DNA of 61,431 bases, filler included, from Diploschistes diacapsis (lineage: Eukaryota), in the NCBI GenBank assembly GCA_023645945.1. It is 5 parts of 5 records of this genome, joined end to end, with 100 filler letters (N's around TTAATTAATTAA, not from the genome) between each part and the next. Parts side by side here need not be neighbours in the genome. Positions count along the whole stretch, not along the records: positions 1 to 30,525 come from JALAIB010000126.1; 4 more parts are not named here. The stretch is one strand, 5' to 3'. The notes beneath the pieces were generated by a model. That model was not told the origin of the DNA, did no database searches, and worked only from the letters and a program-made list of their open reading frames with translations. Both the position numbers and the translations under genes were made by a program. Shown piece after piece: positions 11,995-27,219 of the stretch. Each line of letters opens with the position of its first letter. Positions within the stretch are counted from its first letter, which is position 1.

Positions 11995-13803
11995 ATGTAT
12001 AACCTTACCATTGAACCATCTCAAGCTTTGCAGCGGCAGTTCCCAATTTCTTCATTAACTACATCTAACAAGACGTTTGAGTACGGGCATCTGGAGTTTA
12101 GAAGAGAAGAATACGAGCAAGCCTGCGTTTATTATAGCATTATTCATGTCTTGAAATACTTCCCGATAGCATTCTTGATATACCTTATAGGCCTATGTTC
12201 TTACAGACTCTTTATTTCTCCCCTTCGGACCATTCCCGGTCCAGTCTTTGCTCGGCTCTCGATCGTTTGGCAGCTATGGCATGAAATGGGCAACAAGTAC
12301 GGGTTGAGTATATCGGAAACCCACAAGAAATACGGTACGAGTCCTCATAGATTGTCATAACAGAAAGCATTGACGCTGACATCGATAGGGCCATTCGTCC
12401 GAATCAGCCATGAAGAAGTCTCTGTTTGCCATCCTGAGGCAATCTCAAATATATTGCTCAAGCCACTCGACAAGCACAACTGGTATAAGATCTTCGCCAT
12501 GCCAGATAGCTCTTGGCCTAATCAAATGAATCAAACGAGTGCTAAGAAGTTTGCCATTACGCAAAAAAAGATTGCCAAAGGATATATGTTATCCAACGTG
12601 CTCAAGGCGGAAGCCGATTTTGACGAGACTATCCGCCGCTTCGAAAACTGTATTGATAGCTTGGCTGAGGCTGGCGAACCTATACAGCTTGATGCGTGGT
12701 TTACTTACTTCGCGTTTGACCTGGTGGGCCAAGCCACCTTCTCAAAGCCTTTCGGATTTCTTGAGCAGGGGCAAGACGTTAAAAATTGTATTGCCACTTC
12801 ACATGCGCTCATACCATATCTCACGGTGATGGCGCATTTCCCTCAATATCATGACTTTCTGATGCTGAACCCGTTGACCAAGTGGCTTAACTTTCAGCCG
12901 ATGAAGCATGTTATGGACACAACGACCCGGGCAGTGATAGAACGCGAGCAGTCATTGGTGTCCGGGAGCGATATGATGGAACACTGGAAGTCCCAGAAAG
13001 CTGGAGACCCTTTAACGCGGAGAGAGCTGTTGGCTACTGCTAACGCTAATGTTGCAGCTGGTGCGGACACAGTCGGAACTCAGATGCAGTCTTTCGTTTA
13101 TCTGATGCTACGACATCCAGAATGTTTACGAAGACTTCGGACGGAGCTCGACGAGGCTTTGCTCAAAAACAAGATATCGTCTCCAGTATCATATAATGCG
13201 TCCCAAGGTCTACAGTATTTTCAAGCTTGTGTAAGTGGGCCACCTCCTTCGTAATAGTTCACAGTACTAACAGTATGTTTAGCTCAAAGAAGTATATCGC
13301 CTGCATCCCACTTCTTTCAGTTCCATACCCCGAGTCGCTCCTAAAGAAGGTGTTAGGATAGGTGATCATATTTTCCCATATGGTGTAATGCATCCCGCTC
13401 TTTCTTTGTTTAGGCTGACATTTCGCATAGACTGTTGTCAGTGTGAATCCCTGGGCGATTCATAGAGATCCTTTAATTTGGGGGAAAGACGCCTCAATTT
13501 TTAAGCCAGATCGCTGGCTAGAGAACGATGGCAGAGCGCGGGAGCGAAACCTAATAAGCGTAAGGATAAGTCGCATCTCAGATTTATAATACTAAGGATT
13601 GCCATCAACAGTTTGGTGCTGGCTATATGCAATGCCCGGGCAAGCAGCTCGCACATGTGCAGCTATCAAAACTGCTCTCGACCTTGGTTCTGGACTACCA
13701 TTTAGAACTGGCAGACGCAAATAAAGAATGGCGCATTGCGAAGGCCTCATTTGTTGCAAGACCCTACGGTTGGGCTGTTAAGGCTAAGCGACGCAATACT
13801 TAG
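11995..13803 (+). CDS. Cytochrome P450 monooxygenase (5 exons)
   Basis: N-terminal TM helix and PLRTIPGP, I-helix AAGADT, ExxR (KEVYR), FKPDRW, heme motif FGAGYMQCPGKQLA. Introns at about 12335-12388, 13231-13281, 13384-13430 and 13560-13611; TAG at 13801-13803. Confidence 0.93.
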
Positions 13804-13892
13804 CTAATAGACTGTGTTGCGGCTAGATTTGAAGCAACCTGGTCTCAAGGCGCTTCATGCAAAAATGTTTTATAGAAGTAAGCCCTGGTGCT

Positions 13893-14916
13893 TTATTTGC
13901 CAGGTACTCTGCCAACAACGACGCGAATGACATGGGAAACATACGAGCCCAGCTGGATCTCTGCATGAGCGCCAATCGCGAGCTGCTTCACCTGGTTCGC
14001 CCTCTCAGGAGGCCCGTACTGCTCCAACATCGTTGCATGCTCGTCCGCTATCAGACACCAGAGGTCCGTGATCATATGTCTTTGATGCTGATGTTCAGAG
14101 TATGTCTCATCTGTAACGATATTGAAACCGTTTCGACTGAAACTCTCTGGGAGCTTGGCTATCCACCTATGGTCCATCAGTGTTATCATCATTGTAAATC
14201 TAGGAGCTAGGAGCCAGGAACTGTCGCAAGCCTACTGTGTCTGCTTTGTGTGTGCCCAGATATCCCTCAAAGCCTGCAAGCATGGAATTGGCGCTGAACC
14301 CAGATATGGCCGAAGACGAAATGCCAATGGATCCATCTCATCCCACTGTAGAAATCCACCGGGCTCTAGTAAAGCCTCACGTTAGAGAAGCATGGGCCAC
14401 AGGAGTTGTTTGGACACATACTTAGAAGCTTGGTGCAATGATCCAGCCAGGGCATAGGGTCATTGTTTTCCACCACGGCCATCAACAGTCGGATGTGGAC
14501 TACATCGTATTTCCCATACAAAGATTCGGGAGGGTCTAGTGTGGCGTCAAGTTTGCTTAACGTGACGTTCTTGGGCAGAAATGTAGGATGAGGGAATTGA
14601 GCATCGGATATGTCGAAGCCATCGAATTGAACAGATGATGGCGCTTGCCGAGCTACTTCACAAGGCCAGATCCCAGTACCGGTAGCAATATCGGCAACCT
14701 TGTTTCCTTCTTTCAACTGGATCTGAGGGTGCATATTAAAGCCAATGGCTTCTCTCCAGAGGTGGAACTGGAAGTTCAGTCTGATTGTTAATTACAATGG
14801 GGCTTCACACTGGGAAGGATGGCGCATTACCTCACCGAAGCCAAATAGCCTCTAGCAAGAACATATTCGTTCTTTTGCGGCATAGGGCTTTGTGTCCGTC
14901 TCGGCTGAACGCTCAT
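13893..14916 (-). CDS. Class I SAM-dependent methyltransferase (fungal secondary-metabolism type)
   Basis: Spliced product contains YVLARGY..RLNFQFHLW, motif I VADIATGTGIW, GFDISDAQFP, YDVVHIRLL and LLKPGGFLQWDE; three GT-AG introns. Confidence 0.88.
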
Positions 14917-25324: not shown

Positions 25325-26277
25325 ATGGGTGGCCAACGCTACTTCAGGCTTCCCGCTACAGACGTCGGCGAAGAAACGCCAGCAACCCATACAGCCTCGA
25401 GGTTGCCCAGGCGAGCAACGTCTTACAATCTAATCTCGATCCTTGCGATCATCTCGAATATTTTTCTACTTGGCCTATGGTGGAAGGAGAAGAGCTCGCA
25501 ATGCGTTCGTCCGCAGTTGACATATTGTATGGACACGGCAAATATGGTACACGCATGGGGGGGATTAATAACAAGTACAGCACCTGCCAAAAGCGCGATT
25601 TCCTACGAGCGGAAGAAGCTCATGAGAAATATCGAGGACAACGTGTTTACCGGACAACCGAGACCCGAGCACGACGCCGCCTGGACACGGCTGGTCGAAC
25701 GTTTGTTCATAGTCCTTGCGCTTGGAGAATGAGAAGAGGGCTGCTAATCGCTGGCTCCGGGCAGCAATTACCATAAGAGTGTCTCAGGAGGCTCTCGATC
25801 GCACGAACGAAGATTCCATTGCTCTCAGAGACGGATCGGGATACATAGCAGAGCTTGCGGTTTATCATGAGCTCCATTGCATTGTGCATACAGCGCCCCG
25901 GTTTCCAGGACTGAGAGCTCGCTAATTGGGATGCAGAAAAGAATACGCCGGCATCTGTATCTCGAATATTATTATCCAAACATGACTGCGGATGAGAAAC
26001 GTCGAGAAGGGCCCCATATTGGTAAGCTTCCTGCTCCGTGGTTTCCATTCAATCTTTGGTGACCCTGAGTTCTCGTGAAGATCATTGCCTCGAATACTGG
26101 CGCGAGGCCGCAATGTGCAGAGGCGATACAACCATTTCAACCTTCAGGTGGGCAGATGGGTATCCTTACTCAACCGTGTATAGTGAGCATGAGTGCGTGA
26201 ACTGGGATCTACTCGACGAGTGGGCGAGGAAGAACATGGTAGATATGTCGGATTATTCTGCTTTGGACGTCAAATAG
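25325..26277 (+). CDS. DUF3328/UstYa-family oxidase #1
   Basis: Five exons (introns 25527-25580, 25701-25764, 25884-25936, 26022-26080) splice in frame. Product has an N-terminal TM, YSPA, FTGQPRPEHDAAW, AVYHELHCI, HIDHCLEYWREAAMCRGD and HECVNWD, i.e. two HxxHC motifs. Confidence 0.93.
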
Positions 26278-26335
26278 ATATATAAATACCGCCCCTTCGC
26301 ACCTCACAGAATAGAAATTGTCGCCTACATCATGT

Positions 26336-27219
26336 CTAGAGGATGCCCGTGTCCGAAGAATTACGCCACCTCTCAGCCCACGTCTTAACGGCACTGTAGT
26401 CTCGGCATACTCTCTCCGAGCCCCAGCCGGTTGTGATGTGATTCTCTCGACTTACGGCCTCGAGGTTGGTATCCGCGGCGCACATGAGTGCATGTCGTAA
26501 GTAATCAAAGCAATGGCGCATGTGGATACTATCTGTACGAGCCCCGATGGCATCGAGATACAGATCCGCAGTAGCGGAGCCGTTGAGAATCTGCAGATGT
26601 TGCAAAGTAGCATAGTAGGCTACTCTAATACCGTGCTGTAGGTTCAAGTGCTTAGCAGAGCCTCCCCAACAAAGACTGGAGCCTGATAGACGTGAGGATA
26701 GGGGTAACCTACAAGGCAATGCAGCTGGTGGAACACAGCAATGTTGGAGATGAATGGCGCCAGCTCTGGATGGTGAACAAAGCCGCGGCCGACTTCAAAG
26801 TGAACAGAGAGTTAACTATATGGTGGCTAAGTAAGCGGTGAACCACTTACTTGGTACGATCGAAGACCATGCCGCTTCGGATTCTGGAGAAGGCTTGGAG
26901 GAAAAGGTAAGGTTGTGCTCCCATTTCTCTGGAATACTGCCTGGGGGTGCTAGGAAGTTAGTGAATTGCCATCTTGTTTTACGTTTAGAGACTTACAAGG
27001 AAGTCCGTCTTCGGTCAGAATCAAAGAAGGTCCTATCAAAGAGCCGGCAAGGAAGCCCATCGTTAGGCACACAATTGCGGTGACCAAGAGTTGTGTAATA
27101 TGTGCACCACTCAGTAACAGTCTCTCGTTCTCCAAGTTAGAGGATGCAGAATTGCCGTCCTGTTGCGATTCGTTTGTCGCAACAATCTCGTACTTGGCAT
27201 TATGCTTCTGAAGCGGCAT
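26336..27219 (-). CDS. DUF3328/UstYa-family oxidase #2
   Basis: Four exons splice in frame. Product has an N-terminal TM, PSPESEAAWSSIVP, GRGFV, AVFHQLHCL, HMRHCFDYLRHALMCAADTNLE and GWGSERVCRDY, i.e. two HxxHC motifs. Confidence 0.93.

Follow-up and report, generated by a model that had tools for sequence, protein, structure and literature searches.

Two kinds of described gene cluster resemble parts of a nine-gene island in the genome of Diploschistes diacapsis (GCA_023645945.1). Ustiloxin clusters contain a cytochrome P450, a major facilitator superfamily (MFS) transporter and a methyltransferase, as set out in PMC6941272 and in agreement with the initial annotation of the island. In the biscognienyne B (bis) and asperpentyn (aty) clusters, according to PMC12720273 and PMC12356543, 4-hydroxybenzoic acid receives a prenyl chain from the UbiA-type enzymes BisJ and AtyB, this chain is afterwards oxidized by the P450s BisI and AtyI without any polyketide synthase (PKS), and a phenylalanine ammonia-lyase (PAL), a flavin adenine dinucleotide (FAD)-dependent decarboxylating hydroxylase, a cupin epoxidase and an SDR (short-chain dehydrogenase/reductase) are encoded as well. 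We analyzed a stretch of 61,431 nt, hereafter the window, in which the nine intact island genes occupy positions 11995-27219 between RSM27 and an asparaginase gene, and include a UbiA prenyltransferase, a candidate precursor of a peptide that is synthesized ribosomally and modified post-translationally (RiPP) and two UstYa/DUF3328 oxidases. The initial annotation had left two readings side by side, a single prenylated, methylated RiPP cluster and two adjacent modules. Our analysis left the former unsupported and favored the latter: on balance, the island probably consists of juxtaposed units rather than one pathway, with a UbiA enzyme that does not act on the peptide.

The prenyltransferase gene (15855..17114, + strand; 419 aa) encodes a UbiA/COQ2-type aromatic prenyltransferase that matched PF01040 (E = 1.5e-40; open reading frame (ORF) 15693-17111) and carries both the NDxxDxxxD motif and the second Asp-rich motif intact. 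It aligned with positions 1-281 of 282 of TIGR01474 (ubiA_proteo), the 4-hydroxybenzoate prenyltransferase model, at a score below the equivalog cut-off (188.3 vs 275.45 bits); five relatives scored 155-214. The sole match in a PDB sequence search was archaeal ApUbiA (4od4), at 33 bits. Its sequence identifies the protein as a paralogue of the COQ2/UbiA-type 4-hydroxybenzoate prenyltransferases, and its substrate is predicted from the subfamily. The gene is intronless, and its neighbors have one to four introns.

A tree was computed from 118 of the best 120 matches to the UbiA protein, two rows shorter than 280 aa having been dropped and no verified fungal COQ2 reference being included. It resolved two clades with 99% support in the Shimodaira-Hasegawa-like approximate likelihood ratio test (SH-aLRT) and placed the window protein within a clade of 66 of the 118 rows, which also contains Bisporella, Pyrenula and Rasamsonia as well as a large subclade made up of Xylariales and Diaporthales. 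All 19 members of this clade that were examined have a long N-terminal extension, with 6-12 K/R and 0-2 D/E among the first 60 residues; in the other clade, two of three members examined have six D/E in that stretch. The extension of the window protein spans ~100 aa, and its first 60 residues comprise 10 K/R and no D/E, a composition suggestive of a mitochondrial presequence. Organism names were attached to 37 of the best 120 matches (at least 295 bits); these are chiefly Xylariales and Diaporthales, with Bisporella, Pyrenula and Rasamsonia in addition. None of these 37 came from Aspergillus, Penicillium, Fusarium, Botrytis or other heavily sequenced genera, yet Aspergillus and Botrytis proteins were numerous when that database was queried with UstYa2. 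For this reason, we take the clade for a COQ2 paralogue of patchy occurrence and not for a housekeeping enzyme.

The same absence of heavily sequenced genera, along with a TIGR01474 score under the equivalog cut-off (188 vs 275), makes it quite improbable that the gene is the organism's housekeeping mitochondrial COQ2 for ubiquinone, located beside secondary-metabolism genes by chance. Several features would fit such a role, namely the presequence-like N-terminus kept in 19/19 clade members examined, the full-length match to TIGR01474, the name 'para-hydroxybenzoate polyprenyltransferase, mitochondrial' given to several relatives by their sources, and a branching order within the clade that roughly tracks fungal classes.

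At the other end of the island, the putative RiPP precursor (24136..24513, - strand; ATG at 24513, stop at 24136) comprises about 108-110 aa and one short intron, with its end at 24396 or 24390. The N-terminus encoded by exon 1 (24513-24441), MRYNTWFPSLLLFTGVAWA followed by LP, is hydrophobic and signal-like, as judged by reading the sequence. Exon 2 encodes four repeats of approximately ADADEVIR-NSWSA-KDIANR, also detected as the DNA direct repeat D3, and a C-terminal end reading ...NSWSAKDVAN. The repeat unit is free of Tyr and contains Trp; the precursor is devoid of KR, RR, KK or RK, with a single basic residue on each side of NSWSA. A perfect (AAAGA)7.6 microsatellite (24563-24600) lies just upstream of the precursor start, inside the promoter shared with UstYa1.

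Searching exon 2 against 1.8 billion representative sequences with HMMER yielded 19 matches, six of them below 1e-10. Counts were made on 16 of these matches plus the window protein (17 proteins, 52 repeat units), the three omitted matches being 781-1108 aa long. The family formed by the window precursor and proteins P0156-P0174 has the repeat consensus DAD[ED]x[VI][RKH]-NSWSA-[RK]. Upstream of the core, D at position -5 and V or I at position -2 are invariant (52/52 units each), A at -6 occurs in 48/52 units and R, K or H at -1 in 49/52; within the core, W is present in 52/52 units, N in 48/52, the first S in 47/52, the second S in 44/52 and A in 42/52; and position +5 is R or K in 36/48 units. 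Because KR directly follows the NSWSA/NSWSE/NAWSA core in 4/17 family members and several family proteins terminate exactly at NSWSA or NSWSE, the C-terminal cut can be placed, from sequence, right after the core. The homologues have hydrophobic N-termini resembling that of the window precursor. A subgroup that includes the window protein carries an extra x-x-I/V-x-N-R tail, and its final repeat ends at N. In one homologue, P0156, the 69 N-terminal residues match exons 3 and 4 of UstYa1 (51% and 61% identity) and are followed by an NSWSA precursor; the adjacency of UstYa1 and precursor thus recurs in another genome. As judged from these comparisons, the precursor and its two UstYa genes are a real RiPP trio belonging to a conserved family. 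Motif-word and topic literature searches found no published mention of the NSWSA precursor family, a search on dikaritins, tryptophan and UstY found nothing relevant, and NSWSA, NAWSA and SSWSA were absent from three text supplements of PMC7329392.

The first UstYa/DUF3328 oxidase, UstYa1 (25304..26277, + strand), has five exons encoding 247 aa, three of which matched PF11807 in ORFs within 25160-26274. It has an N-terminal transmembrane (TM) helix and two HxxHC motifs, HELHC and HIDHC, and its gene and that of the precursor are divergently transcribed, 790 bp apart. The second, UstYa2 (26336..27219, - strand; four exons, 233 aa), matched PF11807 with E = 5.8e-15 (26339-26794), carries the HxxHC motifs HQLHC and HMRHC, and is convergent with UstYa1. 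Hydrophobic secretory N-termini are found in the precursor and in both UstYa proteins. The first exons of UstYa1 (25304-25526) and UstYa2 (26997-27219) are both exactly 223 nt long and are followed by a phase-1 intron just before an S-P motif, which is consistent with an old tandem UstYa duplication.

Pfam was scanned over 128 stop-to-stop ORFs of the island (11.3-28.7 kb) and 132 further ORFs of the window, and spliced models were built by hand; their reading frames are open and the family motifs are present. Both lines bore out the gene inventory and order that had been proposed initially, from the P450 ATG at 11995 to the UstYa2 ATG at 27219, and Pfam likewise confirmed the flanking genes RSM27 (MRP-S33; 11116-11328, - strand) on the left and asparaginase (29528-30523, - strand), cut by the contig end, on the right. 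Neither the 128 island ORFs nor the 132 others contained a PKS, nonribosomal peptide synthetase (NRPS), terpene cyclase, tyrosinase, peptidase, DMATS or transcription-factor domain. The initial annotation's statement that no other backbone enzyme, tyrosinase, peptidase or transcription factor is visible held for the scanned ORFs. Because the contig (1-30525) ends inside the asparaginase gene, this statement, like any absence of other enzymes, extends no further than 12 kb leftward and 3 kb rightward of the island.

Adjacency within 15 kb, the invariant core Trp and the lack of an alternative acceptor-forming enzyme on the contig would be compatible with a single hybrid cluster, in which UbiA prenylates the UstYa-cyclized NSWSA peptide, for example on Trp, and the product is also methylated and hydroxylated. 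The enzyme, however, is a member of the 4-hydroxybenzoate subfamily whose N-terminus is presequence-like, in contrast to the secretory machinery of the peptide; it is this mismatch of compartments, together with the subfamily, that makes peptide prenylation by UbiA unlikely. The peptide prenyltransferases known to us belong to the ABBA, DMATS or ComQ type, and none to the UbiA type. The island's prenyltransferase domain is PF01040 only, with no DMATS or ABBA match in the 128 ORFs. The listed relatives of UbiA and UstYa2 overlap neither in taxa nor in contigs, and the titles and abstracts found on UstYa with UbiA, or on DUF3328 with prenyltransferase and RiPP, described no UbiA enzyme in a RiPP pathway and no system combining UstYa/DUF3328 with UbiA. 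We therefore consider a hybrid cluster very improbable. Were it true, it would be, as far as our searches and knowledge extend, the first example both of a peptide prenylated by a UbiA-type enzyme and of a dikaritin-like RiPP from a fungus that is prenylated.

The comparison of relatives on which this assessment draws used match lists that rest on shared 5-residue words, with 43 candidates scored for a methyltransferase exon and 68 for UstYa2 exon 4. For the methyltransferase, six matches were listed, five of them named; the best were Icmadophila ericetorum (57%) and Aspergillus granulosus (53%), followed by Paecilomyces. The UstYa2 exon gave 28 listed matches, 23 named, led by Talaromyces stipitatus and Lophium mytilinum, both at 60%, with Sclerotiniaceae, Aspergillus and dermatophytes after them. 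Among the matches listed, UbiA shares no genus with the methyltransferase or UstYa2, and the latter two share Aspergillus only, in different species. When the longest contigs were compared by size, as a proxy for co-location, 0/28 UstYa2 values and 0/6 methyltransferase values equaled any of the 120 listed for UbiA; among the contigs compared are scaffolds of megabase size, which belong on the one side to T. stipitatus, Lophium and Botrytis and on the other to Bisporella and Xylariales. Indirectly, and among the matches listed, this points to modules that occur independently elsewhere, the pattern that the initial annotation had set against a single cluster. A search for UbiA in bacterial and archaeal genome contigs, as fungal contamination, returned no match. 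One candidate UstYa locus, in JAXHUA010000141.1 (16554-36643), was rejected as a 28-residue chance match to the UstYa2 alignment on an ordinary bacterial contig.

The promoter arrangement was examined as well. Three divergent pairs, methyltransferase/UbiA, hydrolase/MFS and precursor/UstYa1, each have their own promoter. Across six upstream regions (4.9 kb), a k-mer search found no 7-mer in at least five regions, no 8-mer in at least four, and no 9-mer or 10-mer in at least three. The best relaxed 7-mer, AACGCGG, occurs in 4/6 promoters, which hold four of its seven occurrences in the window, and is one of 21 such 7-mers counted without a shuffle control. Both the separate divergent promoters and the lack of a widely shared k-mer speak for juxtaposed units, as does the independent conservation of the RiPP core.

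The P450 (11995..13803, + strand) has five exons (11995-12334, 12389-13230, 13283-13384, 13431-13559 and 13612-13803) encoding 534 aa, and matched PF00067 in the ORFs 12361-13251 and 13570-13800 (+ strand; E = 1.2e-20 and 1.3e-6); its spliced model shows a membrane anchor at the N-terminus, followed up by the motifs AGADTV and EVYR and the heme motif FGAGYMQCPG. The methyltransferase (13893..14916, - strand; about four exons) is a class I S-adenosylmethionine (SAM)-dependent enzyme of the Methyltransf_23/25 type, for which the Pfam match is weak (14369-14791, - strand; E = 5e-4) and which shows VADIATGTG and LKPGGFL after splicing. It diverges from UbiA across a gap of ~940 bp. Searches of the ESM Atlas with exons of both genes returned generic family names only.

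In an ustiloxin-style RiPP cluster, the P450, methyltransferase and MFS transporter would hydroxylate, methylate and export the UstYa-cyclized NSWSA peptide, leaving UbiA, the PTH11-like protein and the hydrolase as bystanders. This arrangement has a precedent in ustiloxin B clusters, which carry a P450, an MFS transporter and a SAM-dependent methyltransferase by their DUF3328 genes (PMC6941272); in the window, all the genes are contiguous and intact, and the contig encodes no other substrate-forming enzyme. Nevertheless, the methyltransferase shares its promoter with UbiA and not with a RiPP gene, and its best listed relatives (Icmadophila, A. granulosus) fall outside the species of the best listed UstYa2 relatives. 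Moreover, a distance of 7-10 kb separates the P450 and methyltransferase from the precursor, and this interval holds three unrelated genes as well as two copies of an element resembling a miniature inverted-repeat transposable element (MITE). We regard this explanation as unlikely, though the most credible of the alternatives considered here.

Under the favored explanation of juxtaposed units, a first unit (~24.1-27.2 kb, perhaps with the MFS gene at 21.4-23.2 kb) would constitute a dikaritin-like RiPP core. Its precursor would enter the secretory pathway and endoplasmic reticulum, where membrane-anchored UstYa1 and UstYa2 may modify the conserved unit, presumably by oxidative cross-linking via the invariant Trp. 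Proteases would then cut beside the basic residues that bracket NSWSA, and, by analogy with yeast alpha-factor, which undergoes X-Ala dipeptide trimming, the acidic DADA spacer may lose its X-Ala dipeptides. The MFS transporter may export the peptide product. The second unit (12.0-17.1 kb) would combine the COQ2-derived aromatic prenyltransferase with the methyltransferase and P450. By analogy with BisJ/BisI and AtyB/AtyI, the acceptor prenylated by UbiA is most likely a small benzoate or phenol, for instance 4-hydroxybenzoate, and the P450 and methyltransferase may then oxidize and methylate the prenylated aromatic. The same precedents imply that UbiA and a P450 without a backbone synthase need no peptide substrate. 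A small molecule of its own is a more probable product of the three enzymes than a decorated peptide.

Several observations weigh against this partition. The nine genes are tightly packed between housekeeping genes on a contig without any other backbone enzyme, and since ustiloxin clusters hold a P450, a methyltransferase and an MFS transporter, part of the second unit could serve the peptide. The P450 is likened to BisI and AtyI at the level of family only, and none of the PAL, FAD-dependent decarboxylase, cupin and SDR known from the bis and aty clusters occurs here. The mitochondrial presequence of UbiA is deduced from composition and not from a dedicated predictor, the comparison of relatives covers the matches listed and depends on shared words, and contig size is a proxy for co-location. 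Finally, third-codon-position GC content (GC3) is 0.49-0.56 throughout the island genes and fails to separate the units; composition neither joins nor splits them.

The remaining island genes lie between the two units, and those for the PTH11-like protein and the hydrolase are assigned to neither. A PTH11-like seven-TM protein with a fungal rhodopsin domain (18320..19507, + strand) matched PF20684 with E = 1.5e-37 (Fung_rhodopsin ORF 18287-19504). An alpha/beta hydrolase (19851..20658, - strand) matched PF12697 (Abhydrolase_6; 19854-20736, E = 5e-14 and 1.6e-7), starts with MSAPKPTVLFVHGSWH, has no signal peptide and shows the nucleophile motif HSYGG. Divergent from it is the two-exon MFS gene (21388..23151, + strand), an efflux-type transporter that matched PF07690 (MFS_1; 21382-23148, E = 2.8e-30). 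The MITE-like element, ~105-113 nt long, begins with TGTGGT and ends with ATATCACA; its three copies share 88-96% identity. Two of them, at 17521-17633 and 17822-17934, are in direct orientation and sit within the 1.2 kb that separate UbiA from the PTH11-like gene, and the third is an inverted copy (10540-10621) to the left of RSM27. A hidden Pyr4-like terpene cyclase at 17.1-18.3 kb was considered and rejected, as this region has just the duplicated MITE-like copies and no long membrane ORF.

The window as a whole consists of five contigs pasted together via four linkers, N44-TTAATTAATTAA-N44, which carry stop codons in all six frames and occupy 30526-30625, 38263-38362, 45998-46097 and 53723-53822. 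The pieces measure 30.5 kb, three times ~7.6 kb and a final ~7.6 kb to the window end. In the sequence database, the window's own UbiA is assigned to a contig of 30,525 nt. Adjacency across the linkers is artificial, and the genuine context of the island is 1-30525 only, with 12 kb of housekeeping genes on its left (PUF, an SF3b-type DUF382/PSP protein and RSM27) and 3 kb on its right. The asparaginase coding sequence (29528-30523) has 68% GC and a GC3 of 0.88, compared with 0.44-0.60 in 12 other coding stretches of the contig. This jump is restricted to the coding region and could possibly reflect a strongly biased codon usage, a foreign origin or a chimeric assembly. On another contig, a 92-nt direct repeat (54887-54978 and 55039-55130; 78% identity) lies at the 3' end of a ferric-reductase ORF (55102-57231, - strand), whose end is overlapped by the second copy.

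If the island does consist of two modules, it is an ordinary secondary-metabolism neighborhood, and the postulated prenylated RiPP is an effect of adjacency. Of greater consequence may be the NSWSA family itself, which its sequences mark as a dikaritin variant that is Tyr-free, Trp-centered, mostly without Kex2 sites and, in the window, not accompanied by a tyrosinase on the contig. The UstYa-dependent macrocycles known to us rest on Tyr ethers, and for this reason the family could reveal new UstYa cross-link chemistry. A presequence-bearing COQ2-like clade outside ubiquinone synthesis would be a second, smaller lead.

Set beside the dikaritins (ustiloxin, phomopsin and asperipin-2a), the locus shares a precursor with a signal-like N-terminus and tandemly repeated cores, neighboring UstYa/DUF3328 genes that each encode two HxxHC motifs, and an MFS transporter, P450 and methyltransferase nearby. 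It differs in its core, which is free of Tyr and contains an invariant Trp (NSWSA), in its precursor, which has no dibasic Kex2 site (KR being found in only 4/17 family members), and in its contig, where the ORFs of 1-30525 encode no tyrosinase of the UstQ/PhomQ type, S41 peptidase or transcription factor. The likeness to the bis and aty clusters, at family level only, is a UbiA enzyme beside a P450 without a PKS; there the acceptor, 4-hydroxybenzoate, comes from primary metabolism, and for the window UbiA it is predicted by analogy. In place of PAL, FAD-dependent decarboxylating hydroxylase, cupin and SDR domains, none of which appeared in the scanned ORFs, the window has a methyltransferase. 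With the COQ2/UbiA enzymes of ubiquinone synthesis, the window protein has in common a full-length TIGR01474 match, both Asp-rich motifs and a presequence-like N-terminus, but it stands apart from them in scoring below the equivalog cut-off, in belonging to a patchy clade and in being sited among secondary-metabolism genes.

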